A DNA stretch of 64,000 bases from Patescibacteria group bacterium. GTDB taxonomy: Bacteria > Patescibacteriota > Patescibacteriia > UBA2591 > JAQUPP01. The stretch spans positions 477,046-541,045 of the forward strand of contig JAQUPP010000001.1 of assembly GCA_028716665.1 (NCBI GenBank), written 5' to 3'. A model generated the notes under the pieces. The model made no database searches, was not told the origin of the DNA, and worked only from the letters and a program-made list of their open reading frames with translations. Every line of letters starts with the position of its first letter. Position 1 is the stretch's first letter. Both the position numbers and the translations under genes were made by a program. Of the stretch, positions 11,700 through 52,567 are shown in pieces.

Positions 11700-12326
11700 A
11701 TGCTTACACTACGAATTATAGCAGGTGTATGTTTAGTGGTAGCCATTATTGCATTTATTTATCGGAAGATTGAATTTAGTAATGTTGACGAGGATGACAG
11801 AGACAGTCTCAAAAAAAATTCTTTTATCATAAGATTTTTCGGTATCTTGGCTGTATTGTTTTTGTTTTTTTCATGTTTTCAGGTTGTCCCGGTGGGAAAA
11901 ATCGCAATAAAGGTTAAATTGGGCATGGTTTACAGTGTAGAAAAGAGAGGGGTTATATTCGTTTCGCCACTTACAAGAATTGTTTTTATGGATAATCAAA
12001 TCCAATCTTTCACTGTTTCTTCAAGTGATAAATCTAAAGGATTTATCAATCTCCGGATCATGACAAAAGACAGTCTTATCGAAGATTTTGAAGCAACAAT
12101 TTGGATCAGATTGACTTCGGCGACTCGAGTATATGAAGATTGGGGGTCAAAATATACCAGTCGAATGGTTATCCCTATTATTTCTACTTCAATTAAAGAT
12201 GTAATGAGTCAAATGAAAAGAGAAGATTTCTATTTTTCAAAAAGTAAAGTTCAGATTAAAATTACAGAATTGCTCAATAAGGAATTTAAAGATAAGGGAA
12301 TAGTGGTTGTTAGAGTTTTGCTGTAA
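11700..12326 (+). CDS. Membrane protein with an SPFH/band-7-like domain
   Basis: N-terminal TM segments, then VPVGKIAIKVKLGMVYSVEKRGVIFVSPLTRIV..., consistent with a prohibitin/HflC-type fold. Confidence 0.45.
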   Translation: MLTLRIIAGVCLVVAIIAFIYRKIEFSNVDEDDRDSLKKNSFIIRFFGILAVLFLFFSCFQVVPVGKIAIKVKLGMVYSVEKRGVIFVSPLTRIVFMDNQIQSFTVSSSDKSKGFINLRIMTKDSLIEDFEATIWIRLTSATRVYEDWGSKYTSRMVIPIISTSIKDVMSQMKREDFYFSKSKVQIKITELLNKEFKDKGIVVVRVLL

Positions 12327-15635: not shown

Positions 15636-15664
15636 GATTGAACAATTAGATTAATTATTGTATA
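15636..15664 (+). promoter_or_regulatory. Near-consensus promoter abutting the histidine-kinase start
   Basis: TTGAAC, then 17 nt, then TATAAT, then 8 nt to the ATG at 15675. Confidence 0.45.
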
Positions 15665-15674
15665 ATATTAGGAT

Positions 15675-20395: not shown

Positions 20396-20424
20396 TTGAC
20401 CATATTTAAGCCAAATGTTATAAT
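20396..20424 (+). promoter_or_regulatory. Near-consensus promoter abutting the rpsU start (leaderless)
   Basis: TTGACC, then 17 nt, then TATAAT, then 8 nt to the ATG at 20433. No SD. Confidence 0.5.
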
Positions 20425-20432
20425 AATAATAT

Positions 20433-20651
20433 ATGAGTATTGAACTTAAAAGAAAACCAAATGAATCCTTAAATATCTTTTTAAGAAGATTCAGCGAACG
20501 TATTAAAAGAAGCGGCGTACTTGACCTTGCCAAAAAGGGTCAATTTTATGTTAAACCGCAAAGTAAGCTTCTTCGCAGAGCAAGCGCTTTGTGCAGGAAA
20601 ACGTCTCGCGAGAAAATGGAATATTTAAGAAAACTTGGTAAAATTAAATAA
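20433..20651 (+). CDS. rpsU: 30S ribosomal protein S21
   Basis: 72-aa basic protein. ...FLRRFSERIKRSGVLDLAKKGQFYVKPQSKLLRRASA... matches the S21 pattern. It is followed by yqeY, the classic neighbour. Confidence 0.75.
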   Translation: MSIELKRKPNESLNIFLRRFSERIKRSGVLDLAKKGQFYVKPQSKLLRRASALCRKTSREKMEYLRKLGKIK

Positions 20652-21188: not shown

Positions 21189-24100
21189 ATGAAAATTGAA
21201 ATAATTCGCCAAACAGCGAACAAAAAACAATTGAAAAAAAATATATTTTTAGGTTTTTTATGTTTATTGATGGTGTCCGGATTTTTATTTTTTATTTTAA
21301 GTCCGGTCATGACAAAAGCGCAAGAAATGAATAATGGTTTGGAAAATTTCCGCAGTGCGGCAAATTATGCCAATACTGATTTGCCGACGGCGATGGGAAG
21401 AATAATGAAAATTGTTTTGGGTGTACTCGGATTGGCGGCAACAGTTATTGTCATTATGGGTGGTTTTAAATGGATGACTTCGGGCGGAGATGAAAATAAA
21501 ATTTCTGAAGCCAAGAAATTAATGATGGCCGGCATTGTCGGCATTTTAATTATTGTTTTAGCTTACGCTATTTCCAGTTTTATTATCGGCAAACTTATGA
21601 GCGTAACTCCTCCTCCACCTCCTTGTGTGGGAAGTTCTTGTCTTAATAATCCATATAACCCTCTACCGGTAGATGTTTTTAAAGTTAAAAGAATTGAGAG
21701 CACCCACGGCAGTTCTTTGAAGGCAGGCTCTTTGCAGACAGATTATCATCAAGATGTTTATTTATGTTCGGCTGTCCAACCGATGTTTAATAATTGGATT
21801 AATGCGGAGGCAATTAAAGATTTGGCTCAGAATGATTTAAGAGTTGAAACAACAACAGGAGGCAATAAAATAAATGGCGAATGGCAAACCAGGGATGGCA
21901 TTATTATATTCAAGCATCAGGATTTATTTAACGAAAATACCGAATATACAACTTATTTGCCCAAAGCGATTCTGAATACAAGCAGTAAAACCTTGCAAGA
22001 TTGTTTGGCTAGCGGAACGGCTAACGGAAAATGTATAGAGAATGGAAGCTATTTTATTTGGAACTTTACAACCGGTACCACCACGGACAAAGTTGCTCCG
22101 ACCATTACTTCCGTTTATCCGATTTTAGACCAAACAAATAAACATTATCCGGATCAAAATGTCTCCCTTAAGCCGGCGATTGAAGTGAATTTTTCGGAAG
22201 CGATTGACGCCACTACAGTTATAGAAGAAGATAGTGTTAATCCGATTTCAGATAATATTTGGCTGGCTGAAATAGACAAACAAGGTGGCATAATTAAAGA
22301 AACTTTACTCCCCGAAGAATTTACAGTAAATATGAGTGATAATGGATTTAGATTAAATTTAAGCGATGCAAATTTATTAAAACCGTTTACATGGTATAGA
22401 ATTCATGTCAGCGATATTAAAGACCTTTGTTCAAATAAAATGGCCGCGGCAATGGAATGGGAGTTCCAAACCAATGATCGGGCACCCGGAATATCATCTG
22501 TCTATCCGGAAGGTAATAAAGTTTGTCTTGATTCTAATATTAGTATTGTCTTCAATACTCAAATGTATGACAATAATATAGACATAGAAATTAGTGATGG
22601 TGTCGATACTTTTACTACGAATATGACGCCAAGCGTTATCGGGGTGCCATATCAAAAAGTGATTACAGGCGGAATTTTTAAAGTGGACAATCCTAAAGAT
22701 CCGATTGATAACGGATTTAGGATTTTTACTTTTGAGCCGACTAATAATTTAAAAAGCAATACGAAGTATACGATAAAAATTAATACTGATTTGGTAATTG
22801 ACCAAAAAGGCGCTCTTTTAGCTCGCGAATGGAATTTTACGACCGCTACGCCGGAAACTTGTTTGTGTTCTCCTTGGATTTCTTCTTTGAATCCCGAACA
22901 AGGTTCAAATGGCCAATGTTTGACTATTAGCGGCGCCTGTTTTACTGGTACTGATTTACAATCTGCTGATCCGAAAATTGAATTTATCTTAAATAGTGTT
23001 TCTAAACCGGCAACAATTGGCGGAAAAGATAAAAATTATATTACTACCGTTGTCCCCTCAGATTATATAAAAAGCGATCAACCCCAAGTTCAAGTGACAA
23101 TTAAATATAGAACTGGAGGAGAAGAATTAGTTAGCAATCCATCCGAATTTACTGTTGATAGCGATGAAACAGCTACCGGTCCTTGTCTTTGGTCAATTAA
23201 TCCTTCCAGCGGTTATCCAAGTGAAACTTCAGTTAATTTAAGCGGTTTGCGTTTTGGCCCTGCTTCAGGTCAAACCACGCAACAAGTTAAATTTTATAAT
23301 AATCAATCAGCTTCTTTTAAAACTTGGTCAGATAACCTGATAGAAAAAACTTTGGTTCCAACGGATGCTGTGACCGGTAATGTCGCGATTATTAATGATG
23401 CAGGTACCAGTAATGGAATACCCTTTACAGTTTTACCGCATGTCGGATCGGCAGGATCTTTATGTCGAGCCAGCGAGTGTCCTTCTAATCCATTGAATAC
23501 TTGTACGGCTCCATATCAATGTAAAAATGAAAGTACTGACACTTGCCGCTGTTGTTGTGATCCAAAAAATGATTTATGCGCTTCACCACTTCATTGTTTA
23601 GCTGATCAAGGTAGTTGTAACAGCACTAGCGCAATCAATCCACGTGGTCTTTGTTGCGGTTGTACGGGAGATGATCAATGCGGCGCCGGCGCCGGTTGCG
23701 GGATGCTTGACTCAAATCGTTGCTGCTATAATCAGCCAACTGTTAAGATTTCTGCCTGCTCTAATCCTCAAAATCCTTCAAAAAAGATTGGCAACAATAC
23801 GGCTATTTCCATAATTTTCAGTGATCTAATGAATTATGGAAGTTTAAAAGAAGAAAATATTAAAATTTTTGAAGAAACAGCGGGAATTTGCAAACTTGAT
23901 AAAATTTGCGAACAAGAAACAAGTTGTAATTGTCAAGTTAAGAATGCGACAGTATGCACAGTCAATAAAAATAATAAAGAGTGTAATTATGAGCATATTC
24001 CTGTTCAGGGAAGAATTATTAATTCAGATGTTCAGAGAGAAGAAATATGTAAATTGGCTACTTTGAATTGTGATAAAGACAAAGGATGTGACTGCAAAAA

Positions 24101-27100
24101 TGGTAATAAAATAGTTTGCACGGTAAAAAAAGATAAAGATTCTTGTGCTTATTATGTTTCTGATCATACTGAAACTGTTTTTTATCCATCAGAGTGTAGG
24201 CTGGAAGAAGAGACTCTTTATAAAGTGACAATCAGAGGGGGGATTAACGGAAAAGGAATAATAAGCAAATCAGGTGTTTCCATAAAGGACAAGGAATTTA
24301 CGTTTACTACCGGAAATAAATATAATTTTTGCGACGTGGATCAAATTAAGGTTTCACCAGTTTCAACTATAATTAAGAGTTTTAAAGAAATAAAAAAATT
24401 TACTGCTCAGGCCAAAGATACAGAAAATAATTCAATTTGTGTTCCTGGATTTATTTGGGGTTTTCCCGATGATATAAATGTGGCAAATTATATAGAATCA
24501 TGCAGTCCTGCTAATTGTGATTGTATTAATTCTCAAGGACCCAGTTGCGCTAGAAATCTAAAAAAGGTTTTAATGAATCCTGCTATTGAAGCAAACGTTC
24601 AGGCGCAAGCTGAAGGAGCAACCGGAGTTTCTGCGTTTACTGCCGGAAAAAATGGCTTGGCAAATCTTGAAGTTGATTTAATTTCACCGGTGATTACGAG
24701 TATTAGTCCGGAGGAAGGCACTAATAATCCAATTATTCCAACTTATGTGACAATTACCGGAATAAATTTTGGTTCAAGTCAAGGCGAAAGTAAAATAATG
24801 TTTGGTAATGTGACTGCGGATATTGCTTGTCAGAATTGGTCTGACAAGAGTATTGTCGCCATTGTGCCGCCAAGTTTAGATAAAGGGTTAAATCAAGTGA
24901 CAATTTTTCAATCAGATCAGGGAGCGAGTAATCAGGTGGGTTTTAAGGTGCAAGATTCTTTTCATCCGGCGATTTGCAAGCTTCAACCGAATTTCGGTAA
25001 AACGGGCGACATTGTTTCTATAAATGGAAAAAATTTTGGAGATACGATGGCTAATAACGGTAAAATTATTATTGGAGATCCTTTAAATGGGGGAGTAGAA
25101 TTAGTGAAAACGGTAAATAATAAATCTAATCCTAATATTTTATCTTGGTCTAATCAGGAAATAAAAATAAAAATGCCTGAAGTTGCTCAAAATGAAGCTG
25201 AGGTGACTGTCTCGGTTCCTTCGCCGATTGAAGCCGGTAATCCTTTAAAAATTAGCAATCCCGTAACATTTCACAAAGCCCCGATAATTACGAGTATTAC
25301 GCCCGGTGATGGTCCGAAAAAAACATGGATAACAATTCATGGTTATAATTTCGGCTCTGTGAAGGGTGTAGTTTCTTTTAAATATAATAATACTAATTAT
25401 TCAGCTGCTGATTTACCAACTTACTGCGGATCGTCTTGGAGCGATACGCAAATTATAGTTGAAGCGCCGCAAATTTTGCCGGACGTGGCGACTGATCAAG
25501 ATTCTTATAATCTTCAAATTGAGGTTGATACCGATTATGGAATAGCCAGTCAGTCGGTTAAATGGACACTTAATAAAAAATTATTGGGTCCGGCGCTTTG
25601 CTCGATTAATCCGTCCAATGGCTGGCCGGGATTTAGTCCGGTTACGATTCAGGGTGAAAGATTTAATTTAGCCAGTGGCGAATCCGCCCGAAGTCTTGTC
25701 TTTAATAAAGACAAGGAAGCGGCAATTTTAACTTGGTCAACTGATGGCGCGATAAACAATATCGCTGTTCCGCAAGACGCAACCAGCGGCAATGTAGTGG
25801 TCACAAAAACAATTCAGACCAACAGCCGTCAAAAATGTATCGGTATTTCTTTTGGCGGAAAGTGTTTTGGTAAAAAGCAAACGGTTTGGGATGAAATTAA
25901 AATGACCAGTAATCCTCTTCATTTTAATATTGTTCCTTTGGGTGGTTGCGGTATTTTCGGCACTTTGGATACTCGAGACAGGGATCCGATTTTAGTTGGC
26001 GAAAAAGAGAATGAATATCCGCCTGTTAATCCTTTTGACAGCCAAAGTGTAGGAACGCTCGCTACTGACGGAAAATATCTTTACACAAAAAGTTGGTCAG
26101 GTTATGATCAATGGCCAAATGGAGTTTACGGATGTACTAATGGCAGCGGCTGTGAAGATAATATGATTAGTAAAATCGGTACCGGTTATCAAGGAACTGT
26201 GTCCGGTAAAATTTATAAAAAAGATTTGGCAACAGTCAATCACAGTCTTACAATGACTTATTTTCCTGATGATTGGCTTTATAACGGTTATACTAATAAT
26301 GGACATAATTTAGAAAGAGTGAATGTGATCACTGGTGCGGTTGATTATGTTGAGATTCCATCGTCAACGCCTTTAATGAATCGGGAAACCGGACGAGATT
26401 TAACTGAATTATATGAAGATCTTTTAATCACTTCTGACGGGAAATATGTTTATAATTTAGCTCATGGTATTAATGGCTCTTATTATAATGGTTTTAGAGT
26501 TAAAATTTTTGACCCGAATAAAAATTGGCAATTAGTGAAAGAATGGACTTCAATTGGTTCGGGCAGTTATATTCCATCTTTTTATACTGACGGTATTATT
26601 GCTGACGGAGACTATATTTATGCGATTCAATGGGGCACCGCAGGAGGCGGAGGTTATCTGATTAGAAAGATGGAGGCTCTAACCGGTAAAGTAATTGCCG
26701 AGTGGACGAGTGAACAAAAACAACTTAATAATCCGCAAGGTAAAAATACGGATATTATTTCCGGACAATATGATTGGGTTAATAATAAAGTTTGGTTGGG
26801 CGACTTGGTTGACCGTAGGAATGCCGATAATAAGTGCGACCAATGTTCGGGCTATTGTCATTGCACTCCGGCTTATATTTATCGTTATGCTTGCCAGGGA
26901 GCAGGTCAGTTGGGCTTACCTCAAGTAATTGGAGATGCCAATTGCGAAACTAATCTTCCGAGTCCTTCACCGGCTGCGGATCTATCCGCTGTTTGCTCTA
27001 ATGCCGTTATCAGTGCGCGTTTTAATCAAAAAGTGAGCGGTTTGACTCCTTTAAATATTCTAGTTCAAAAATGCAATAATGGTTCAGATAATTTTAACTC

Positions 27101-30100
27101 TCAAAATTGTACTGCCGACGTGGCAGGTAGTATTTCTTTAGACAGTTTTAATAGTCAAGGTTTTATTTTTACGCCAACTAATAATTTAGACGCGAATTAT
27201 TGGTATCAGATTACGTTAAAAAGCGGTTCCACCGGAATTAAAAATCTTAATAATTATTCTTTGGATGGCAATAAAAATAATATTCAAGACGGCGAGGATA
27301 ATTATTTTTGGCATTTTAAAACAGGATCAAATCTTTGTTCGCCCGAGAAAGTTAAAATATCTGAAACAGTACTAGTCGGTGAAAAAGCGGGAATAATTAT
27401 TAAACCAGGAACTAGAAATTATTTTGCTCAAGCTTTTGGTCCAAATTGTCAAATTCTAAAATCCGCCAGTTTTTCATGGACTTGGACCTCGACAAAATCT
27501 GAATTTGCCACAGTCGGCAGTTCGGTTAACAATCAGACAACTGCGACAGGAGTTGATTTGGGAGAAACAGATATAACCGTAACAACAACTCAGCCGGATC
27601 CTTCTGATGCCACTAAAGAAATTAAATTATCAAATAAGACCCATTTGATTGTTGCTACTAGGCCAACAGCAATAAATTATCCAGCGGTTGGCAGTACTAA
27701 TATTTGTCTTAATACTTCAATCTCCGCTACTTTTGACCAATTAATGGATGGATCCACGCTTAATTCAAAGACAATTAAATTTTATAAAGTAGTTCCCGAT
27801 TTGGATGAAGAAGAAGAAGGATCTCCGCTTTCATTTAACCAAAATATTAATAAAAATATTTTGGTTAGATTTTTTAATAATTTAAAAAATGTTTTTCTAA
27901 AGAAAACTGAAGCGGCGGAAAAAATTAATATTTCCGTGGTTGATGATGCAAAACAAACTAAAGTTTATTTAAACATTGATTTATTAGATGAAAAGAGTAC
28001 TTATAAAATAGAAATTCTTGGGGGAGAGAATGGCGTAAAAAGTAAATATGGCATTGGGATGACAGCAGATAAATCTTGGACGTTTATCACCGGCAAGGAA
28101 ATTTGTAAATTGAGTGAGGTAAAAACATCCATAACCGGCAATTCTGAAAAATGTACGGTTGGCGCGGATAAAAAATCGGCAGAATGTTCCAAGGAAAATT
28201 CAACAGTTAATTTTAAAGCTATTGCCAAAAATAATAGAGGAGAAGAAATTCAAAGCGTGACCGGTTATCAGTTGGCTTGGTCATGGAAATCTTCTGATAC
28301 AAATGTGGCGACTATTTCTAACACAGTTAATAATGCTGTTGCTACGGTGAAAAATAAAAATGGTTCAGCCCAAATTACGGCCACGGCTGAAATAACGGGG
28401 GGGAAAGAAAAAATTTCCAATAGTGCGTCAATTAAAGTTTTCCTTTGTGAAGTTCCATGGATTTTTGAAGATAAACTCGGTCAAGCGGAGACGAAAGAGC
28501 CTTATACTAATTTCAGATTGCAATATTGCCAGGGAGATTTAAAGAAAAATTTGGTTTCTAATGGAAGTTTTGAAATAGATAAAACCAAAGATGGCATTCC
28601 CGATAATTGGTTAAATCATGGTAAAGAATATAGTACTGATGGTAAAAATAGTTATTCCGGTAAAGCGGCTATCAAGCCGGGTTATTCATGGTGCCAACCC
28701 AGTGATTCATCTGTTATGCAATATGACATTACTATAAAACCAAATACTTTTTATACGTTTTCAGCTTATGTTAAGGGTGAAAATATATATGCGCCGCGCA
28801 TAGATATAAGATTTTATCATGATATTTCCGAAGATCCTCATCAATTTTCCAATAATTGCGCTTGGTATAATGGTGGAGTAGATAAGGCTGATATAAATTG
28901 CAGTTTTTCCGGTGTTTTGGATAAAGATAGTTACAAACGAATTTATTTTACTTTTAATTCCGGATCGAATGATAAAATTCAATATATATCCCTCCAAGGC
29001 GTGGGAGGCGTTTGCAACCCGGCCCAAGCTTGTAATTGTGGAAATTCTTCAGGAAAACCTTGTGATGCCAGTGCGTGTCCGCGCGTAGTTTGGTTCGATA
29101 ATCTCCAATTGGAAGAAGGTAAACAACCAAGTGAATATCAGGATTTTCCATCCTTACCGTATCTTGTCGCAACCGAGACTACGAAATCAAGCGTAGTTAA
29201 AGAATTTATTTTTACCAATAGTGTTAATAATGACGTGATTGGTCTCAAGGTTTTAAAAAATCCTGATTATCTCACTCCTTTTGAATGGTATAAGAAAAAT
29301 GTACCCAATCCCGGTTCACCGACTTCATTAATTGTTAATGGTTATCAGGCGGTTAAAGAAGGAAGAACGGTTTATGTCGGCGCGACAAATGTTGATAATA
29401 ATGAAATAATTGAAGGTCTGATTTATCTCATCTCATATTCTGATAACGCCAAGCCGGAAACAATTGATATTTTTAATAAATTAGTTGAAGATTGGCAATT
29501 TAATACAAATAAAACTGTTGATAAACAACTGATCCAACGGGATTTGTTCCGACTTTATGATTTAAGAACAATGAGCCAAAAATTGGCGGATTATAAATCA
29601 AATTATGATTATTATCCAAAACTTGAGTCGGGCAGTTTTATGAAAGGAATAACCGATTCCAAATGGCCTTCTTGGAAAAATCCTCAAGGGCAATTTATTT
29701 CCAGTATGCCGAATGATCCGATTAATCAATTCTTAAACCCGACAAGCGGTTATTGCGCCGGTTGCAATAATGCTAGCCAATGCGATGGAACATGTTATAA
29801 TCAAAGTACGAGTAAATACGAGTGTCCGGTCGGTTCGCACGTTTATCAATACATGGTTAAAGATGGAGGGGCGGATTATAGTTTGTATTTGAATTTTGAG
29901 ACAGATTCTTTGAAATGGCAGAAAAGTTGCAGCGGCATGGATCAATCCAACTGTGAAATTCATTATTTATGCGGTTGGGCGGCCAATAAATGTCAGTCAA
30001 AATTATTCGGTTATAGCTCAGATATTTACAAATGTTTTGATTCTGTCTATGGTCCGGTTATTGGGAAAACAATAATAGATTCATATGGATCTATTAGCGG

Positions 30101-30125
30101 AATGAATACTAATTATCAGCAATAA
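21189..30125 (+). CDS. Giant multi-domain extracellular protein (2978 aa) with an N-terminal pilin-like two-TM hairpin, Ig-like/IPT domains, a Cys-rich module, a beta-propeller-like region, BIG2-like domains and a CBM/laminin-G-like domain
   Basis: A single ORF with no SD. The N-terminus is ...IVLGVLGLAATVIVIMGGFKWMTSGGDENKISEAKKLMMAGIVGILIIVLAY. Cys-dense segments include CRCCCDPKNDLCASPLHCL. An IPT-like segment is PVITSISPEEG...ITGINFG. The CBM-like segment runs GSFEIDKTKDGIPDNWLNHG...VWFDNLQLEEG. Confidence 0.8.
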   Translation: MKIEIIRQTANKKQLKKNIFLGFLCLLMVSGFLFFILSPVMTKAQEMNNGLENFRSAANYANTDLPTAMGRIMKIVLGVLGLAATVIVIMGGFKWMTSGGDENKISEAKKLMMAGIVGILIIVLAYAISSFIIGKLMSVTPPPPPCVGSSCLNNPYNPLPVDVFKVKRIESTHGSSLKAGSLQTDYHQDVYLCSAVQPMFNNWINAEAIKDLAQNDLRVETTTGGNKINGEWQTRDGIIIFKHQDLFNENTEYTTYLPKAILNTSSKTLQDCLASGTANGKCIENGSYFIWNFTTGTTTDKVAPTITSVYPILDQTNKHYPDQNVSLKPAIEVNFSEAIDATTVIEEDSVNPISDNIWLAEIDKQGGIIKETLLPEEFTVNMSDNGFRLNLSDANLLKPFTWYRIHVSDIKDLCSNKMAAAMEWEFQTNDRAPGISSVYPEGNKVCLDSNISIVFNTQMYDNNIDIEISDGVDTFTTNMTPSVIGVPYQKVITGGIFKVDNPKDPIDNGFRIFTFEPTNNLKSNTKYTIKINTDLVIDQKGALLAREWNFTTATPETCLCSPWISSLNPEQGSNGQCLTISGACFTGTDLQSADPKIEFILNSVSKPATIGGKDKNYITTVVPSDYIKSDQPQVQVTIKYRTGGEELVSNPSEFTVDSDETATGPCLWSINPSSGYPSETSVNLSGLRFGPASGQTTQQVKFYNNQSASFKTWSDNLIEKTLVPTDAVTGNVAIINDAGTSNGIPFTVLPHVGSAGSLCRASECPSNPLNTCTAPYQCKNESTDTCRCCCDPKNDLCASPLHCLADQGSCNSTSAINPRGLCCGCTGDDQCGAGAGCGMLDSNRCCYNQPTVKISACSNPQNPSKKIGNNTAISIIFSDLMNYGSLKEENIKIFEETAGICKLDKICEQETSCNCQVKNATVCTVNKNNKECNYEHIPVQGRIINSDVQREEICKLATLNCDKDKGCDCKNGNKIVCTVKKDKDSCAYYVSDHTETVFYPSECRLEEETLYKVTIRGGINGKGIISKSGVSIKDKEFTFTTGNKYNFCDVDQIKVSPVSTIIKSFKEIKKFTAQAKDTENNSICVPGFIWGFPDDINVANYIESCSPANCDCINSQGPSCARNLKKVLMNPAIEANVQAQAEGATGVSAFTAGKNGLANLEVDLISPVITSISPEEGTNNPIIPTYVTITGINFGSSQGESKIMFGNVTADIACQNWSDKSIVAIVPPSLDKGLNQVTIFQSDQGASNQVGFKVQDSFHPAICKLQPNFGKTGDIVSINGKNFGDTMANNGKIIIGDPLNGGVELVKTVNNKSNPNILSWSNQEIKIKMPEVAQNEAEVTVSVPSPIEAGNPLKISNPVTFHKAPIITSITPGDGPKKTWITIHGYNFGSVKGVVSFKYNNTNYSAADLPTYCGSSWSDTQIIVEAPQILPDVATDQDSYNLQIEVDTDYGIASQSVKWTLNKKLLGPALCSINPSNGWPGFSPVTIQGERFNLASGESARSLVFNKDKEAAILTWSTDGAINNIAVPQDATSGNVVVTKTIQTNSRQKCIGISFGGKCFGKKQTVWDEIKMTSNPLHFNIVPLGGCGIFGTLDTRDRDPILVGEKENEYPPVNPFDSQSVGTLATDGKYLYTKSWSGYDQWPNGVYGCTNGSGCEDNMISKIGTGYQGTVSGKIYKKDLATVNHSLTMTYFPDDWLYNGYTNNGHNLERVNVITGAVDYVEIPSSTPLMNRETGRDLTELYEDLLITSDGKYVYNLAHGINGSYYNGFRVKIFDPNKNWQLVKEWTSIGSGSYIPSFYTDGIIADGDYIYAIQWGTAGGGGYLIRKMEALTGKVIAEWTSEQKQLNNPQGKNTDIISGQYDWVNNKVWLGDLVDRRNADNKCDQCSGYCHCTPAYIYRYACQGAGQLGLPQVIGDANCETNLPSPSPAADLSAVCSNAVISARFNQKVSGLTPLNILVQKCNNGSDNFNSQNCTADVAGSISLDSFNSQGFIFTPTNNLDANYWYQITLKSGSTGIKNLNNYSLDGNKNNIQDGEDNYFWHFKTGSNLCSPEKVKISETVLVGEKAGIIIKPGTRNYFAQAFGPNCQILKSASFSWTWTSTKSEFATVGSSVNNQTTATGVDLGETDITVTTTQPDPSDATKEIKLSNKTHLIVATRPTAINYPAVGSTNICLNTSISATFDQLMDGSTLNSKTIKFYKVVPDLDEEEEGSPLSFNQNINKNILVRFFNNLKNVFLKKTEAAEKINISVVDDAKQTKVYLNIDLLDEKSTYKIEILGGENGVKSKYGIGMTADKSWTFITGKEICKLSEVKTSITGNSEKCTVGADKKSAECSKENSTVNFKAIAKNNRGEEIQSVTGYQLAWSWKSSDTNVATISNTVNNAVATVKNKNGSAQITATAEITGGKEKISNSASIKVFLCEVPWIFEDKLGQAETKEPYTNFRLQYCQGDLKKNLVSNGSFEIDKTKDGIPDNWLNHGKEYSTDGKNSYSGKAAIKPGYSWCQPSDSSVMQYDITIKPNTFYTFSAYVKGENIYAPRIDIRFYHDISEDPHQFSNNCAWYNGGVDKADINCSFSGVLDKDSYKRIYFTFNSGSNDKIQYISLQGVGGVCNPAQACNCGNSSGKPCDASACPRVVWFDNLQLEEGKQPSEYQDFPSLPYLVATETTKSSVVKEFIFTNSVNNDVIGLKVLKNPDYLTPFEWYKKNVPNPGSPTSLIVNGYQAVKEGRTVYVGATNVDNNEIIEGLIYLISYSDNAKPETIDIFNKLVEDWQFNTNKTVDKQLIQRDLFRLYDLRTMSQKLADYKSNYDYYPKLESGSFMKGITDSKWPSWKNPQGQFISSMPNDPINQFLNPTSGYCAGCNNASQCDGTCYNQSTSKYECPVGSHVYQYMVKDGGADYSLYLNFETDSLKWQKSCSGMDQSNCEIHYLCGWAANKCQSKLFGYSSDIYKCFDSVYGPVIGKTIIDSYGSISGMNTNYQQ

Positions 30126-30154
30126 TAAATTTTATAAATTGATAAAATATAATT

Positions 30155-30760
30155 ATGCCAGATGAAATAAAAAATTTAGATGCGGATTTTGCCAATCAAG
30201 ATGGGGGAGTGGAAGATATTTTTGAGGATGTTGAGCGTAAGAATTTTATTTCTGATGAAAATAAAAATTCCGACAATTCATCGTCAAATCGCAAGAAATT
30301 CAATAAGAATTTTGTCCGTGTTGTTTTTATTATTATCATTATCGCGATTGTCGGGGCGGGAGTTTATTATTACGCTTTGCCGAAAATAAAAAATTTAATG
30401 GAACAGGCAAAAATAAAAAAACTCAATCAGACCGGGCAGCCTCAAGCAAATTCGGAAGACAAGACGGCGCCGATAATCATTATTAAGCCGATTGAAATGG
30501 CTCCTGATGCGGATGGTGACGGCTTGACGGATGAAGAAGAAATCACACTGGGCACTGATAAAAATAAATCTGACACTGATAACGATGGTCTTTCCGACCG
30601 AGAAGAAGTTAAAGTTTATTTAACAAATCCCTTAAAACTTGATACTGACGGAGACGGCATTAAAGACAGTCAGGAAATTAAAAATAATACTGATCCGAAT
30701 AATTCAAACCCAAACGCCAAATTATTGGATTTACAAAAAGAAATTGATAAATTAAAGTAA
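30155..30760 (+). CDS. Single-pass membrane protein with thrombospondin type-3-like Ca-binding Asp repeats
   Basis: Acidic N-terminal cytosolic segment, then a TM helix, then DADGDGLTDEEE...DTDNDGLSDREE...DTDGDGIKDSQE repeats. Confidence 0.6.
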   Translation: MPDEIKNLDADFANQDGGVEDIFEDVERKNFISDENKNSDNSSSNRKKFNKNFVRVVFIIIIIAIVGAGVYYYALPKIKNLMEQAKIKKLNQTGQPQANSEDKTAPIIIIKPIEMAPDADGDGLTDEEEITLGTDKNKSDTDNDGLSDREEVKVYLTNPLKLDTDGDGIKDSQEIKNNTDPNNSNPNAKLLDLQKEIDKLK

Positions 30761-43213: not shown

Positions 43214-43262
43214 TTATAGATTTGTTAAATAAAAAAATAAGGTGCCAGTTAAAATTTGAACT
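43214..43262. terminator. Bidirectional terminator hairpin
   Basis: AAAAAAATAAGGTGCCAGTTaaaatttgAACTGGCACTTTATTTTTTT. Confidence 0.7.
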
Positions 43263-43282
43263 GGCACTTTATTTTTTTATCT

Positions 43283-43507
43283 CTAAGGTAATGAAGCCAA
43301 ACTTAAGTAAAATACGACCATACCACAAATGGATACTATATGGCTTATAATTGTGGTTTTGCTTATTGGTATGGGCTTATAATACTGAGGATATTTCTGT
43401 GTCATATAGTCATTATACGAATTACTACAATATGACGAAGCTGCTGTAAGTTGACCAAAAATAAACATTCCAAAGCCAACCCACACCAAAATCAATTTGA
43501 CTTCCAT
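43283..43507 (-). CDS. Small secreted or membrane protein (signal peptide, Tyr-rich middle region, C-terminal TM)
   Basis: AAAGGAGG SD. A consensus promoter lies 50 nt upstream. The 74-aa protein is MEVKLILVWVGFGMFIFGQLTAASS... Confidence 0.55.
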   Translation of the reverse strand: MEVKLILVWVGFGMFIFGQLTAASSYCSNSYNDYMTQKYPQYYKPIPISKTTIISHIVSICGMVVFYLSLASLP

Positions 43508-43560
43508 TTTTTCCTCCTTTGTAAAAAATCACTTTTTTAATGAGTAATCTTTATATTTAA

Positions 43561-43588
43561 ATTATAGCAAAAATTTTATATTTGTCAA
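43561..43588 (-). promoter_or_regulatory. Consensus sigma-70 promoter (minus strand) for the 43283..43507 gene
   Basis: The minus strand reads TTGACA, 16 nt, TATAAT. It sits in one copy of a duplicated ~30-bp block (see 44052-44084). Confidence 0.6.
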
Positions 43589-43637
43589 GTTATTTTTATA
43601 ATTTAAAAAGGACTGATTTTTTATATCAAGTCCTTTT

Positions 43638-44036
43638 TTATTTTTGTTCTTTTGGAGCCGGCAAAGCCTTTATAAAAGGATATCCGATGGTAATTAACAT
43701 TAAGAAATCACCCGGATAAGCCTTAGACATTTGGCGTAGAATTTCGAAACGTATTTTTTCTTCTTCCTTTCTACTCAAAAGTTTATATTTTTTTATATAA
43801 TCTTCCAAGCTCGATTTTAACTCCAGTTTGCATAATCTTCTATCCATTTCATCTACCTCTTTCTTCATGTCATCAATTAATTTACCCAACTGATCCATGG
43901 ATTCACCCAGTTGATCAAAAGGTTTTTTTATACTTGATAACCAATTACTGGAACGCCATAGAAATATGATTATGGCAATCGTAGCAGCTAAAGAAAGAAT
44001 CGGTTGAAGAAATCTAAAAATTTCAAGAACAATCAT
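43638..44036 (-). CDS. Membrane-anchored coiled-coil protein (N-terminal TM, charged helical core, C-terminal hydrophobic segment)
   Basis: AAAGGAGG SD. A consensus promoter lies upstream. The 132-aa protein begins MIVLEIFRFLQPILSLAATIAIIIFLW... Confidence 0.55.
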   Translation of the reverse strand: MIVLEIFRFLQPILSLAATIAIIIFLWRSSNWLSSIKKPFDQLGESMDQLGKLIDDMKKEVDEMDRRLCKLELKSSLEDYIKKYKLLSRKEEEKIRFEILRQMSKAYPGDFLMLITIGYPFIKALPAPKEQK

Positions 44037-44055
44037 TTTTCCTCCTTTTTAATTT

Positions 44056-44084
44056 ATTATATCAAAAATTTTATACTTGTCAAA
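44056..44084 (-). promoter_or_regulatory. Consensus sigma-70 promoter (minus strand) for the 43638..44036 gene
   Basis: The minus strand reads TTGACA, 17 nt, TATAAT. Confidence 0.6.
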
Positions 44085-44104
44085 TCGTTTATTTCTGATA
44101 AAAT
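44077..44104 (+). promoter_or_regulatory. Divergent plus-strand promoter abutting the alr start (leaderless)
   Basis: TTGTCA, 16 nt, TAAAAT, then 7 nt to the ATG at 44112. It overlaps the minus-strand -35 box. Confidence 0.45.
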
Positions 44105-44111
44105 ATACATC

Positions 44112-45305
44112 ATGCTCACTTGGATTGAAATTAAAAAACAAGCGATTAAACATAATCTTGGCCAATTCAGGAAAATTATCGGGCCGAAGGTGAAATTAAT
44201 GGCTGTGGTTAAAAGCAATGCTTACGGCCACGGAATAGTTGAAATAGCCAAAATTGCCTTAAAATCAGGGGCTAATTGGCTGGGGGTGGTTAATTTAGAC
44301 GAAGCGCTGATGCTTAGGCGGGCGAAAATCAAAGCCCCGATTTTTATTTTAAGCTACTGGCCCCTCACTTGCGGGCAAGAGAGAGACTACTGGGAAATGA
44401 TTGACCAAGTAAAAGAGGCGATTAAGCAAAATATTGATTTTCCTGTTTATACTTTTGAGCAAGCTGAATTTTTATCAAAAACCGCTAAAAGCATTAGAAA
44501 AAAAGTTAATATTCATATTAAAATTGATACCGGCGCGACCAGAATAGGCGTCTCAACCGAAGAAGCGGTTAATTTTATAAAAAGTATTAAGAATCTGCCA
44601 AATTTGAATATTGTCGGAATTTTTACTCATTACGCCGAATCAGAATCAAAAGATCAATCTTATACCAATCAACAAACGGAAAAATTTCAAAAAATATTAT
44701 CTTTGTTAAAATTTTTCGGCATTAAAATACCCTTGATTCACAGCGGTTGTTCGGCTTCAACAATTAATAATTCAAAAACATTTTTTAATTTGGTCAGAGT
44801 CGGCCTTGGCATGTACGGCCTTTATCCATCTGATTATACGAAAGTAAATGCTCAAAATAAAAAAAAATCCGCCCGAGGCGGATCGGCCTTGGGTCGAAAA
44901 GTTAAATTTGAACCGGCCTTATCATGGAAAACAAGAATTATTCAAATTAAAAATGTGCCTGCCGGAACTTTTGTCGGATATGACAGAACTTATCAAACAG
45001 ATAAAACGACAAAATTGGCTATTTTGCCAATCGGTTATTTCGACGGTTATGATCGCCATCTTTCAGACTGCGGCCAAGTTTTGATTCGCGGTAAATATTG
45101 CCCGATTCGCGGAAGAATTTGCATGAATTTAATAATGGTTGATGTCAGCAAAATACCTGACATCAAAGAAGGGGAAGAAGTGGTTTTAATCGGTAAACAA
45201 AATAAAAACGAAATTACAGTTGATGATTTGGCCAAGAAAATAGGCACTATCAATTACGAAGTAGTTTGCAGGATTAATTCATTAATTTTAAGAAAATATG
45301 TCTAA
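44112..45305 (+). CDS. alr: Alanine racemase
   Basis: MLTWIEIKKQAIKHNL...AVVKSNAYGHG (the PLP-Lys motif). I moved the start to 44112, because the tracked start at 44004 overlaps the upstream gene. Confidence 0.85.
   Translation: MLTWIEIKKQAIKHNLGQFRKIIGPKVKLMAVVKSNAYGHGIVEIAKIALKSGANWLGVVNLDEALMLRRAKIKAPIFILSYWPLTCGQERDYWEMIDQVKEAIKQNIDFPVYTFEQAEFLSKTAKSIRKKVNIHIKIDTGATRIGVSTEEAVNFIKSIKNLPNLNIVGIFTHYAESESKDQSYTNQQTEKFQKILSLLKFFGIKIPLIHSGCSASTINNSKTFFNLVRVGLGMYGLYPSDYTKVNAQNKKKSARGGSALGRKVKFEPALSWKTRIIQIKNVPAGTFVGYDRTYQTDKTTKLAILPIGYFDGYDRHLSDCGQVLIRGKYCPIRGRICMNLIMVDVSKIPDIKEGEEVVLIGKQNKNEITVDDLAKKIGTINYEVVCRINSLILRKYV
44859..44901. repeat. In-frame GC-rich palindromic insertion element inside alr, copy 1 of 3
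   Basis: aaaaaaaaatccGCCCGAGGCggatcgGCCTTGGGTCgaaaag. It encodes KKKSARGGSALGRK, and the stem CCCGAGGC/GCCTTGGG includes a G-U wobble. Confidence 0.6.
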
Positions 45306-47362: not shown

Positions 47363-47767
47363 ATGAAACTTATATTATATACAGATGGAGGCGCGAGAGG
47401 CAATCCCGGTCCGGCCGGCGCGGGGGGTGTAATTTATGATACTGACAAAAAAGTCGTAAAAAAATTTGCCCAATTTTTAGGCAAAGCAACCAATAATCAG
47501 GCTGAATATCAGGCCCTGGTTTTAGGGTTGGAATTGGCCAAAAAATTGTCCGCAAGTGAAGTAGATTGTTATTTGGACAGTTTATTGGTGGTTGAACAGA
47601 TGAATCAAAAATGGAAAATAAAAAATAAAGAATTAAGCGTTTTATTTGTTAAGGTTTGGAATCTTGCACAATCTTTTGAAAAAGTTAATTTTTATCATAT
47701 CCCGCGCGAAAAAAATGAGGAAGCGGATAAACTAGTTAATGAAATTATTGACAAAAATACTCTTTGA
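47363..47767 (+). CDS. rnhA: Ribonuclease HI
   Basis: LYTDGGARGNPGPAGAGGVIYD... with the RNase H type 1 catalytic DEDD pattern. Confidence 0.85.
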   Translation: MKLILYTDGGARGNPGPAGAGGVIYDTDKKVVKKFAQFLGKATNNQAEYQALVLGLELAKKLSASEVDCYLDSLLVVEQMNQKWKIKNKELSVLFVKVWNLAQSFEKVNFYHIPREKNEEADKLVNEIIDKNTL

Positions 47768-47828: not shown

Positions 47829-48128
47829 ATGCAAAAACAAGAATGGTCAATAGAGAAACCATGGTGCGTATGTCTTGGATCATCAGGTCCAATATTTATC
47901 GGTAAAGTGCAAGAAGATGATATTGGAGGTGTTTACGTAAAACGCTCAGAAAAACCAGGATATTACAGGGAACTATGGAATCCGCCGTATGTTTTGAGAT
48001 TTGAAACAATAATTGAGGCAATTATAAAATTTGCCAATCTTTCTCATAAACATTTGAGACAAATAAAAGATAGCGCATTATTCTGTTTTCCATCTGAAGA
48101 AGAACGCATTCAGGAGATTAAATCCTAG
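47829..48128 (+). CDS. Hypothetical protein (99 aa)
   Basis: Strong SD TAAGGAGGT. A perfect terminator hairpin follows at 48150-48182. Confidence 0.5.
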   Translation: MQKQEWSIEKPWCVCLGSSGPIFIGKVQEDDIGGVYVKRSEKPGYYRELWNPPYVLRFETIIEAIIKFANLSHKHLRQIKDSALFCFPSEEERIQEIKS

Positions 48129-48198: not shown

Positions 48199-48227
48199 TT
48201 GACAAATACATGATTTTCTGCTATTAT
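48199..48227 (+). promoter_or_regulatory. Near-consensus promoter for rnpB
   Basis: TTGACA, 17 nt, TATTAT. Confidence 0.5.
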
Positions 48228-48235
48228 TTAACAGC

Positions 48236-48628
48236 AGACTGGATAATTGCCCCCCACCACTTTTAGACCTTATTTATGTTTATTTATTATAGAGTCTAAA
48301 AGTGGTGCGGGGAGGAAAGTCCGAACACTTCCCTGGCTTTAGTCAGGGAGCAGGGTAGCGGGTAACGCCCGTCCACAGTAATGTGAGAGGTGCGAACAGT
48401 GACGCCGCAATCCGAAAGGGTTGAGGCTTCCGAACTTGTTCGGAAGAATCCCAAAAGTAATTTTGGGAGTGAAACGGCCAAATCCTTACCTGAGTGAAAG
48501 ACCAAAGGCTTTGTGCTTTGCACAAGGCAAGGTAGGTCGCCAGAACCTTGATGTAAATCAGGGTCCAGATAAATAATTATCGCCTTTCGGGGTACAGAAT
48601 TCGGCTTATAGGTCTACAACAAAAAAAT
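48236..48628 (+). ncRNA. rnpB: RNase P RNA (bacterial type A)
   Basis: The P4 strands GGAGGAAAGTCCGAAC and ACAGAATTCGGCTTA are universally conserved. GGGTAACGCCCGTCC (P10-P12 region). A 15-bp P3 hairpin with an AT-rich loop lies at 48256-48312. A terminator hairpin follows at 48629-48660. The ends are approximate. Confidence 0.8.
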
Positions 48629-50071: not shown

Positions 50072-51592
50072 ATGAAAAAATTAGAATTAGAAACAATAAT
50101 CGGTTTGGAAATTCATTTGGAAAGCAAAACTCAGAGCAAGCTTTTTTGTTCTTGTTCCAATAATACCAAATTAACCGAACCGAATGTTCAGATTTGCCCG
50201 ATTTGTCTGGGTCAACCCGGCGTATTGCCTGTATTTAATAAAGAAGCTTTAAAAAATGTTTTGATTTTAGGATTGGCATTAAAAGGAAAAATAAATTTAA
50301 TTTCTTGGTTTGACAGAAAAAATTATTTTTATCCAGACTTGCCGAAGGGTTATCAAGTCAGCCAATACAGTTTGCCTTTTATCAAAGGCGGATGCGTTGA
50401 AATTGACAGCGCGGATGGCATCAGAAAAATATCTTTGGAAAGAATTCATCTTGAAGAAGATACGGCCAAACTGATACATTCTTCTGATGATCAATGGAGT
50501 TTGCTTGATTTTAATCGGGCCGGCGTGCCGTTGATGGAGATAGTGACAGAACCGTGTCTAAAATCTCCATTTGAAGCAAAAATATTTTTACAAGAACTTC
50601 GCACCATTGCCAGATATTTGAATATTTCCGAAGCAGATATGGAAAAAGGACAATTTCGCTGCGACGCCAATATTTCATTAAGGCCGCAAGGAGAGAAAAA
50701 ATATTTTCCAAAAACGGAAATTAAAAATTTAAATTCGTTTAAAGCGGTGGAAGATGCCTTGGAATATGAAATAGAAAGACAAACAAAACTTTGGCAAGAA
50801 AAAAAACAACCCAAAATATCGTCTACTCGGGGCTGGAATGAAAAGAAAAAAAATACTTATCCTCAGAGAAGCAAAGAAGATGTCCAAGATTATCGTTATT
50901 TTCCCGAGCCGGATCTTCCCTCAATTGATTTTAATGAACTTAAAAAAGAGGATATAGATTTGGAGCTATTGGAAAAAAATATTATTGAATTACCCGGAAT
51001 TCGCAAGAAACGCCTTATTCAAATGTATAATTTTTCTTCAATTGATGCGAATATTTTAATTGAAAATAAAGGATTGGTTGATTTTATTGAAGAAACACTG
51101 GTTAAATTAAGAGAATGGATTGTTTCTACTGATATAATTGATGGCACGGAAGAGGAAATTTGGGAAACATCCAAACATCAAATTTCAAAAGTAACCGCCA
51201 ATTGGCTGATTAATCGTCTATTACCCTTACTTAAAAAGGCGGGAAAAAATGAAAAAGATATTTCATCGGAAAAATTCGTTGAATTCATTGTTTTGATTTA
51301 TGAAAAAAAGATTTCAAGCACTCTGGCGCAGACGATACTGGAAAGAATGTTTATTAAAGATGAAAATTTGAGCCAAATTATGGATCATCCCAGTGTTAAA
51401 CAAATTGACAGCGAAGATAATTTAATTGATATTGTAAAAGAGGTTATTAAAAATAACCAAGATACGGTTATTAGATATAAACAGGGGAAACACCAGGTTG
51501 TTCAATATCTGATCGGACAAGTAATGAAAAAGACCAACGGGCAGGCAAATCCCAAGTTGGTCCAGGAATTATTTGAGAAAGAATTAAGCTAA
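50072..51592 (+). CDS. gatB: Asp-tRNA(Asn)/Glu-tRNA(Gln) amidotransferase subunit B
   Basis: IIGLEIHLESKTQSKLFCSCS...PGVLPV... plus a C-terminal GatB/YqeY domain. Confidence 0.9.
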   Translation: MKKLELETIIGLEIHLESKTQSKLFCSCSNNTKLTEPNVQICPICLGQPGVLPVFNKEALKNVLILGLALKGKINLISWFDRKNYFYPDLPKGYQVSQYSLPFIKGGCVEIDSADGIRKISLERIHLEEDTAKLIHSSDDQWSLLDFNRAGVPLMEIVTEPCLKSPFEAKIFLQELRTIARYLNISEADMEKGQFRCDANISLRPQGEKKYFPKTEIKNLNSFKAVEDALEYEIERQTKLWQEKKQPKISSTRGWNEKKKNTYPQRSKEDVQDYRYFPEPDLPSIDFNELKKEDIDLELLEKNIIELPGIRKKRLIQMYNFSSIDANILIENKGLVDFIEETLVKLREWIVSTDIIDGTEEEIWETSKHQISKVTANWLINRLLPLLKKAGKNEKDISSEKFVEFIVLIYEKKISSTLAQTILERMFIKDENLSQIMDHPSVKQIDSEDNLIDIVKEVIKNNQDTVIRYKQGKHQVVQYLIGQVMKKTNGQANPKLVQELFEKELS

Positions 51593-52567
51593 AAATTTTT
51601 TAATTAAAATTTGAGCTTGGTTTAATTTTTTAATCCACTTTATACGTTTGTCGCGTTTAAACCATGTAATTTGACGCTTGGCATAATGCCGAGTGTTTTT
51701 TTTAATCAAATCTGTGGCTTCAGGAAGAGTTATTTCATTTCGCAGATAAGAAATAATTTCTTTATAACCGATTCCGCTAAAAGCCCGCGAATGAGCAAGA
51801 CCTGTCTTTGCCAAGGCTCCGGTAGGCAGGTATTTTTTTATCAATTTTTTAACTTCATCTATTAATCCTATATCAATCATTTTATCAACGCGCTGATTGA
51901 TTTTTTGATATAAAGTCTGACGAGGCAAATTGATGCCGATTAAAAGAGTTTTAAAAAGCGGTTCACCTTTTTGACGCGCCTGAGAGAAAGGTTTTTTGGT
52001 TTTTAAACAAACTTCCAGGGCGCGAATAACGCGGCGAATATTTTCTTTTTGAATGAATTTTTTTGCTTCAGGGTCAAGTTTGATTAATTTTTTCCAGAGG
52101 TAATCAGGTCCGTATTGATTAGCCATTTTTTCCAGTTTTTTTCTTAATTTTTCATCAGGCGCGATTGCCGGAATATCAAAATTATCCACCAGAGAGCTGA
52201 TATATAAACCGGTTCCGCCCACTAAAAACGGAGTTTTATTTCTTTTTTGAATATCATCAATGATTTCTATCGCTTTTTGTTTGAATTGCGCTACGGTGAA
52301 TTCTTGATTCGGCTGTATAATATCAATCATGTGATGCTGAATTCCATTAATAATATATCTGTTCCGGGTTTTGGGCACTGCTTTGGCGGTACCAATATCC
52401 ATTCCTTTATAAATTGTCCGGCTGTCGGCGCAAATAATTTCTACGCCATGCCAGCCCGAGGCTGGTCGGCCTTGGGCCGAAATTTTTTTTGCCAATTTTA
52501 AAGCTATATCAGTTTTGCCTGAAGCGGTAGGACCTAAAATAACAATGAGTTTTTTACGATTTGACAT
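51584..52567 (-). CDS. miaA: tRNA dimethylallyltransferase
   Basis: P-loop LIVILGPTASGKT, then ...ICADSRTIYKGMDIGTAK.... It carries a 12-aa in-frame insertion (see the repeat at 52449-52490). Confidence 0.85.
   Translation of the reverse strand: MSNRKKLIVILGPTASGKTDIALKLAKKISAQGRPASGWHGVEIICADSRTIYKGMDIGTAKAVPKTRNRYIINGIQHHMIDIIQPNQEFTVAQFKQKAIEIIDDIQKRNKTPFLVGGTGLYISSLVDNFDIPAIAPDEKLRKKLEKMANQYGPDYLWKKLIKLDPEAKKFIQKENIRRVIRALEVCLKTKKPFSQARQKGEPLFKTLLIGINLPRQTLYQKINQRVDKMIDIGLIDEVKKLIKKYLPTGALAKTGLAHSRAFSGIGYKEIISYLRNEITLPEATDLIKKNTRHYAKRQITWFKRDKRIKWIKKLNQAQILIKKFLA
52449..52490. repeat. In-frame GC-rich palindromic insertion element inside miaA, copy 2 of 3
   Basis: The plus strand reads gccaGCCCGAGGCtggtcgGCCTTGGGCcgaaatttttttt. 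On the minus strand it encodes SAQGRPASGWHG between the P-loop and the ICADS segment. Confidence 0.6.

Follow-up and report, generated by a model that had tools for sequence, protein, structure and literature searches.

Predicted small membrane-protein genes change behind a near-invariant promoter between serS and alr in a Patescibacteria lineage

Between serS and the alanine racemase gene alr of a Patescibacteria group bacterium, two small reverse-strand genes each follow a copy of the same promoter block (P1 and P2). The DNA analysed, hereafter the window, is a stretch of 64,000 nucleotides of contig JAQUPP010000001.1 (assembly GCA_028716665.1, positions 477,046 to 541,045). The locus is a strain-variable expression slot built of ordinary parts: the open reading frame (ORF) behind the promoter differs among close genomes, while the promoter, and in three relatives also the terminator, is near-invariant. 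An earlier note, made from the sequence without database searches, had described the duplicated block, the small ORFs and a divergent promoter for alr. Its overall interpretation is supported in part, as the sequence-level readings hold but the small ORFs are not conserved; the swapping of ORFs behind one promoter, the insertion between serS and alr and an indel bounded by the repeats were not among its points. To our knowledge there is almost no experimental work on the transcription and translation signals of Patescibacteria (the candidate phyla radiation, CPR), and a literature search for CPR promoters or leaderless genes found nothing specific.

On the forward strand the block reads ATTATA[G/T]CAAAAATTTTATA[T/C]TTGTCAA and spans 28 nt, 26 of which are identical between the two copies (coordinates of this and all other main features are collected in Table 1). 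The earlier note had extended the second copy to 44084, one nucleotide beyond its actual end at 44083. Read on the reverse strand, both copies are TTGACA-N16-TGnTATAAT, the perfect consensus that had been claimed, with a spacer of 16 nt in each and not of 16 or 17 nt. The TG of the extended -10 element (TGCTATAAT in P1, TGATATAAT in P2) lies one base upstream of the -10 hexamer, and the ORF starts about 20 nt after the -10 at P2 and about 54 nt after it at P1. When both strands of the window were scanned for sigma-70 sites, P1 and P2 were the only ones with 12 out of 12 consensus positions. A third copy with up to three mismatches does not occur in the window, and the block was matched in none of 100 dinucleotide-preserving shuffles.

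Hexamers, spacer length, TG, placement before a gene and conservation at orthologous loci all agree with the extended -10 promoters of sigma-70/sigma-A known from Firmicutes and E. coli, down to a position 13-47 nt upstream of an ORF led by a Shine-Dalgarno (SD) sequence. The anatomy is the same; unusual is that 12/12 occurs twice where most genes lack a clear promoter and SD. We infer that the block is a promoter of the housekeeping sigma factor, of sigma-70 type with an extended -10, and predicted to be strong. That this promoter type is used in the genome is argued by the non-coding RNase P RNA gene (bacterial class A, 121 bits; 48231-48624), which independently sits directly behind TTGACA-17-TGCTATTAT at 48199, a promoter that resembles P1 (TTGACAAATA...TTTTnTGCTAT). 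P1 also contains, on the forward strand, a promoter-like TTTATA-N16-TATAAT (43575-43602; 10/12, no TG), located within an imperfect 21-nt inverted repeat (43556-43576 / 43587-43607); transcription from it would run antisense through the terminator and into the 3' end of the gene behind P2.

How alike the two copies are can be gauged from their spacers, given that 14 of the 28 block positions are set by the consensus (two hexamers and TG). The window has 137 promoter-like N16 sites, and comparison of their 16-nt spacers gave 9,311 pairs, among which P1 and P2 show the single highest identity (14/16; runner-up 12/16). As their spacers head this list, the likeness of P1 and P2 exceeds what is expected of two independent consensus promoters.

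The window matches the Patescibacteria metagenome-assembled genomes GCA_028690995.1 and GCA_028713475.1; loci in related genomes are labelled L001 to L131, L098 being identical to JGI locus L126. Recurrence of the block was checked as the earlier note had advised. Outside the source strain the strict block TTGACAARTATAAAATTTTTGMTATAAT was found, among the matches listed, only in L005, L059 and L098 (exact) and in L127 (as an N-variant), always at this same locus, and it is absent from IMG/VR; the contig scan does not bear on recurrence elsewhere in the source genome. A dispersed repeat or regulon motif was rejected, with one copy per relative contig and the block in just two JGI contigs.

The genes behind this promoter change from one relative to the next. 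Behind the alr-adjacent copy stands an ORF of 132 aa in the window and one of 132 aa (84% identical) in L005, followed by 64 aa in L059, 58 aa in L098 and 54 aa in L127. A second copy is lacking in the last three; in the window it precedes an ORF of 74 aa and in L005 an unrelated one of 93 aa. These short ORFs, of which the 93-aa one is the longest, are all predicted hairpins of two transmembrane (TM) segments. The 64- and 58-aa proteins are weakly collinear (32% identity), as are those of 74 and 54 aa (29% over 66 aa, z 7.4), at z scores of 7-8 against shuffles that the shared TM-loop-TM layout inflates. Every allele retains its SD, ATG, TM segments and terminator. Since L004, which is of the window type, and L005 come from one sample (SRR22315506), the variants coexist.

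The promoter region behaves differently from its surroundings. Between window and L059 the 62 nt at 44046-44107 are identical in 61 positions, whereas recJ, alr and serS reach only 85-92.5%, in line with the shared divergent control region proposed before. When L059 is compared with L098, identity is about 95% in alr and serS and 100% in the intergenic region with the alr promoter; precisely over the small ORF it sinks to 36-70%, to rise again at the terminator.

The small genes carry strong translation signals. As had been noted, each promoter copy is followed by a consensus SD closely spaced to the ATG. The predicted 5' untranslated region (5'UTR) is about 47 nt long and of a 'TTAAATA...' type for the 74-aa gene, and about 13 nt for the 132-aa gene; the predicted fold of the former is weak (-5.2 kcal/mol, z -1.3), and the SD stays unpaired in it. 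Topology prediction agrees with the exported or membrane nature suggested for the two products, giving a 2-TM hairpin for the 74-aa protein and one N-terminal TM segment for the 132-aa protein. The two do not resemble each other, as stated earlier (local alignment z = -0.15). Both units end in predicted intrinsic terminators. The one behind the 132-aa gene (-12.5 kcal/mol, z -5.4, then UUUUU) has a homologous hairpin in L005; the one shared with serS, whose coding sequence ends at 43204, is a hairpin of -25.2 kcal/mol on the reverse strand (z -9.0) and -27.3 on the forward strand (z -7.2), flanked by T/A runs on either side.

The homology search that had been called for found one close relative of each protein and nothing further. 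Among 5.8 billion clustered proteins the 74-aa protein has a 100% copy and one relative of 88% identity (intact, from a second lineage), and the 132-aa protein has its 84% relative. A 132-aa profile run exhaustively with HMMER against 1.84 billion representatives returned its own cluster and four weak matches (E ~1e-4, in proteins of 424, 1,413, 714 and 213 aa), none convincing, and phage and plasmid collections held no match to this protein. Pfam, PHROG and PADLOC scans of all alleles gave sub-threshold hits only, such as DUF4064 for the 74-aa protein (15.1 bits, threshold 32.1) and DUF948 for the 132-aa protein (14.4 bits, threshold 37.2). The AlphaFold2 model of the latter is all-helical and of low confidence (pLDDT 63, pTM 0.38).

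Lack of conservation of the small ORFs in relatives had been named as a finding that would speak against the earlier interpretation. Each relative does have a different ORF, and by that measure the interpretation is half refuted; yet the alleles are intact and the 132-aa gene compares with its L005 allele at a ratio of nonsynonymous to synonymous substitution rates (dN/dS) of 0.10, with dS 0.79 and 39 of the 62 differences at third codon positions. On account of this ratio and the third-position excess, the 132-aa ORF is, judged by its substitution pattern, a real gene under purifying selection. Both small proteins would be inserted in the membrane, strain-specific and probably made at a high constitutive level; the very high expression that had been suggested for them would agree with their promoters and SDs. 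Our best guess at their role is immunity or exclusion at the envelope. In the related locus L001 (GCA_028690995.1; 1732-2925, 3399-3833) the 74-aa ORF is absent from the called genes and may be missing from public annotation; alr is called there as two ORFs (93 + 289 aa), which would reflect a frameshift or an assembly error.

On the other side of P2 lies the promoter that faces alr, TTGTCA-N16-TGATAAAAT, which matches 10 of 12 consensus positions and has the TG. As the earlier note had it, its -35 overlaps that of P2, by 5 bp, and it ends 7 nt before the alr ATG. No SD is present, the best upstream match to GGAGG being 3/5. The ATG at 44112 is the start, because the N-terminus M(L/F)(T/S)W(I/V)EIKK is common to the orthologues. 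This geometry recurs: at the alr of L129 (about 59% identical), ATGACA-17-TGTTATAAT is followed after 7 nt by the ATG; at the S21-like rpsU (20433-20651), TTGACC-17-TGTTATAAT lies 8 nt before the ATG (site 20396-20435); at the gene starting at 30155, a TG-extended -10 ends 6 nt before the ATG (site 30135-30157); and another first-in-run gene has a -10 box 6-8 nt before its ATG (15655-15677). Leaderless bacterial genes, known from Actinobacteria and Deinococcus and modelled by GeneMarkS-2, likewise have their -10 box 6-8 nt before the ATG (PMC6028130, PMC3160421). With an ATG start, no SD and a TG-extended -10 at 7 nt, a pattern shared by rpsU and two to three other window genes, alr resembles them, and geometry and recurrence together lend good support to an alr mRNA that would begin at or next to the A of the ATG.

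Strong SDs are rare in the window, GGAGG preceding the first start codon in about 5 of 37-40 genes, both small genes included. Together with the several -10 boxes 6-8 nt before an ATG, this scarcity suggests that leaderless and SD-independent initiation may dominate in this genome.

In L059, L098 and L127 the same alr-facing -10 is kept, and between it and the alr ATG lies a leader of about 200 nt (L059 4452-4650, reverse strand; 100% identical in L098 and L127). It is absent from the window, where the junction falls right after 44107. The leader folds into a multi-branch structure with a long-range closing stem (-48.7 kcal/mol, z -4.1, reached by 0 of 200 shuffles). An Rfam scan of the leader gave no match, and nothing meaningful was found by Rfam at the window locus either; the leader could be a cis-regulatory RNA of a new type or an inserted element.

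More distant relatives indicate how the locus arose. In L128, L129 and L131, whose alr is about 60% identical, the genes are co-directional and no reversed gene precedes alr: serS lies 13 nt before alr in L128 and 114 nt before it in L129, and hisS precedes it in L131. As these relatives have no reversed gene next to alr, the comparison marks the reversed unit as a lineage-specific insertion that splits a gene run and would now supply the alr promoter. A closer relative, ENA contig ERZ1426824 (alr 93% identical), has alr, 111 nt, a homologue of the 74-aa gene, 76 nt and serS, with no 132-aa gene. Removal of one repeat plus the inter-repeat DNA from the window predicts 109 nt for the first interval, so close to the 111 nt seen that the two blocks appear to mark the ends of an indel that comprises the 132-aa cassette.

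The 5'UTRs carry a second trace of this history. In an alignment of seven promoter-to-ATG segments, a short 'AAATT' type is found in P2 of the window, P2 of L005, L059 and L098, and a long 'TTAAATA' type in L127, P1 of the window and the second promoter of L005 (P1'). Because it shares the long type with L127, the 74-aa cassette looks like an older, L127-type allele that once stood directly at the alr-adjacent promoter. P1 is a hybrid: the flank upstream of it and its 5'UTR have their orthologues in L005 P1', whereas its core equals P2. L005 P1' has drifted (17-nt spacer, TATCAT), and a P1 core equal to P2 beside this divergence suggests that recombination or gene conversion took place inside the promoter.

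We therefore propose, as a reading that we consider probable, a strong promoter with an inserted small-gene unit whose cassettes have been swapped and set in tandem. A small autonomous unit was inserted in reverse between serS and alr; it comprises a bidirectional promoter region and a consensus SD, followed by the ORF of a small membrane protein with its intrinsic terminator. Its strong arm, P2 (12/12 + TG), would transcribe the small gene, and the weaker arm (10/12 + TG) alr and the genes behind it. TTGACA (reverse strand, 44083-44078) and TTGTCA (forward strand, 44077-44082) share 5 bp, as in back-to-back divergent promoters, and the 62-nt unit is conserved; the two arms could hence not be occupied at once, a mutual exclusion that here follows from geometry only. 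The conserved promoter and terminator may act as anchors of homology through which one cassette allele is replaced by another. The window strain carries two tandem cassettes, P1 being a copy of P2 before the older 74-aa cassette; the duplication would have arisen through recombination within the promoter or by later gene conversion there, and the 28-nt direct repeats could also delete the 132-aa cassette again.

Several points weigh against this proposal. Part of the likeness of P1 and P2 is shared promoter consensus, as other window promoters also read TTGACAAA...TTTGCTAtAAT, and neither convergence nor gene conversion can be separated from a single duplication event. L059, L098 and L127 are so close to each other that their identical intergenic DNA says little, and the case for conservation comes mainly from about 60 nt compared between the window and L059 and between the window and L005. 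The single-block junction of the ENA contig is deduced from gene spacing only. In contrast to known leaderless genes, the alr-facing -10 of L059, L098 and L127 lies about 200 nt from the ATG, ahead of a structured leader, and a leaderless alr is thus not general; promoter strength, translation and the leaderless start of the window are all read from the sequence alone. The role of the proteins is a guess, with no family, defence or phage profile above threshold.

A rival that concerns origin and role, and overlaps with the proposal above, is that the units are remnants of mobile elements or phage 'morons', delivered by a phage or another element and kept for superinfection exclusion or immunity. 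The layout is that of a moron: its own sigma-70 promoter, one ORF and an intrinsic terminator, inserted in one lineage between conserved housekeeping genes and varying in content between strains. Yet the unit is chromosomal and lacks a phage context, its neighbours being lysS, serS, alr, DUF5654 and recJ with no phage or mobile genes adjacent and no prophage around it. The absence of the block from IMG/VR, the lack of matches of the 132-aa protein in phage and plasmid collections and PHROG and PADLOC matches that all stay below significance also speak against this origin, which we consider unlikely.

Somewhat less probable still is that the shared spacer is an operator: a dimeric repressor would bind its conserved ATAAAATTTT core and so regulate the two small genes jointly and, by way of the overlapping -35, alr as well. 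Conservation of the spacer extends to all seven promoter instances, AAAATTTT is itself palindromic, and L005 P1' contains a perfect 16-bp palindrome, GCATAAAATTTTATGC (L005 520-535), that fills its 17-nt spacer. In P1 and P2, however, the palindrome is only 8-10 bp long, which is unremarkable at 34% GC, no regulator gene is adjacent, and an AT-rich spacer with a T-tract before an extended -10 is expected from promoter strength alone.

Type I toxin-antitoxin loci, in which a membrane toxin with its own promoter and terminator is controlled by an antisense RNA, would also explain small hydrophobic orphan products in autonomous units, their rapid turnover and the hypervariable alleles, and the forward-strand site inside P1, facing the 3' end of the 132-aa gene, could be taken for the antisense promoter. 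That site is the sole candidate, though, and its start would fall inside the terminator hairpin; the Rfam scan gave neither a small RNA nor an antitoxin match. No leader that sequesters the SD was found, as the 5'UTR values given above illustrate, and both genes pair a perfect promoter with an unmasked consensus SD. At 74 and 132 aa the proteins exceed the typical size of type I toxins; the larger consists mainly of soluble helix, and the others form 2-TM hairpins, not the usual single-TM peptides, and a dN/dS of 0.10 fits an ordinary protein. Because the SDs are unmasked, with no 5'UTR structure covering them, and no credible antisense gene is present, we rank a toxin role low, an immunity or exclusion type of role first, and regard the toxin-antitoxin reading as very doubtful.

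The least credible alternative is that P1 and P2 reached the consensus independently in an AT-rich genome, with no common history or regulation: half of the block is fixed by consensus, other window promoters share the TTGACAAA and TTTGCTAT motifs and the loose pattern occurs in at least 120 unrelated genomes, mostly AT-rich promoters of Campylobacter and Clostridia, but the top-ranking spacer identity, the empty shuffles and a P1 core that equals P2 where the orthologous L005 promoter is more diverged argue for copying or conversion. Diversification by a diversity-generating retroelement was set aside as well, as the nearest RVT_3 match (47363-47767) is accompanied by an RNase H domain and resembles rnhA.

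Table 1. Features of the serS-alr locus and of related signals in the window (positions are those of the window)
Feature	Positions	Strand	Description
P1	43561-43588	-	TTGACA 43588-43583, 16-nt spacer, TGC, TATAAT 43566-43561; 12/12 + TG; forward-strand letters ATTATAGCAAAAATTTTATATTTGTCAA
P2, ancestral alr-adjacent copy	44056-44083	-	TTGACA 44083-44078, 16-nt spacer, TGA, TATAAT 44061-44056; 12/12 + TG; forward-strand letters ATTATATCAAAAATTTTATACTTGTCAA
Bidirectional promoter region, 62 nt	44046-44107	both	P2 and alr-facing promoter
alr-facing promoter	44077-44104	+	TTGTCA-N16-TGATAAAAT; 10/12 + TG; -35 at 44077-44082
alr (alanine racemase), first of run alr-DUF5654-recJ-rnhA	44112-45305	+	Pfam Ala_racemase_N 6e-63, Ala_racemase_C 8e-48
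SD of 74-aa gene, AAAGGAGG	43513-43520	-	GGAGG 5 nt before ATG at 43507
SD of 132-aa gene, AAAGGAGG	44041-44048	-	GGAGG 4 nt before ATG at 44036
74-aa ORF, near-orphan	43283-43507	-	predicted 2-TM hairpin; hydrophobic residues 1-23 and 50-74
132-aa ORF, orphan	43638-44036	-	predicted TM residues 1-30, then about 100 mostly helical charged residues
Intrinsic terminator of 132-aa gene	43600-43638	-	inverted repeat; predicted hairpin followed by UUUUU
Bidirectional intrinsic terminator, serS (+) / 74-aa gene (-)	43229-43280	both	26-nt inverted repeat, 92% complementary; also flagged by the terminator scan
Genes with GGAGG	3579-4298 (-), 11700-12326, 43283-43507 (-), 43638-44036 (-), 47829-48128		

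Two further observations concern other parts of the window and its relatives. A GC-rich palindromic element with the core CCGCCCGAGGCGGATC lies in frame inside housekeeping genes and encodes KK(K/I)SA(R/Q)G(G/R)(S/P)A(L/S)G...; it was flagged on the reverse strand by the terminator scan. In the window it is found at 44860-44905 (alr) and 52454-52482 (miaA, 51584-52567, reverse strand), in L059 at 1110-1125 and 4072-4087 and in L127 at 1423-1438 and 1807-1822. Among alr orthologues of about 90-95% identity, the window has one site, L059 the other, L127 both and L098 neither. It has the look of a small mobile element inserting into coding sequence and calls to mind the Rickettsia palindromic elements. 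The window also contains two very large forward-strand ORFs (4603-11547, 2,314 aa; 21189-30125, 2,978 aa).

Each part of the locus is of a known kind, namely extended -10 promoters, divergent promoters, leaderless genes, moron-like units and orphan small membrane proteins in a variable islet. Mildly new is that in Patescibacteria a perfect, invariant promoter stays in place at a single locus, and the genes behind it are exchanged or stacked. A bolder and more tentative extension, which we put forward as possible though not likely, is that the invariant promoter, in some genomes together with an invariant terminator, forms an expression slot anchored by recombination, through which populations of episymbiotic Patescibacteria maintain and exchange many highly divergent alleles of small membrane proteins under frequency-dependent selection. 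Extra cassettes would be stacked by recombination at the promoter, without an integrase and with the consensus promoter as the attachment homology, and the selection could be, for instance, phage or toxin exclusion or recognition of a host or partner.

The locus offers a clean, comparatively validated example of what would, by sequence, be the strongest promoter type of Patescibacteria, in a genome where most genes have no SD, together with a probable leaderless housekeeping gene. Being hypervariable, compact and easy to amplify, the serS-alr locus could mark strains, and it could open the way to small membrane proteins in which co-occurring strains differ. If these proteins play no part in exclusion or immunity, the locus is simply a well-annotated orphan gene pair; if they do, it would serve as a minimal model for how cassettes turn over when no dedicated recombinase takes part.

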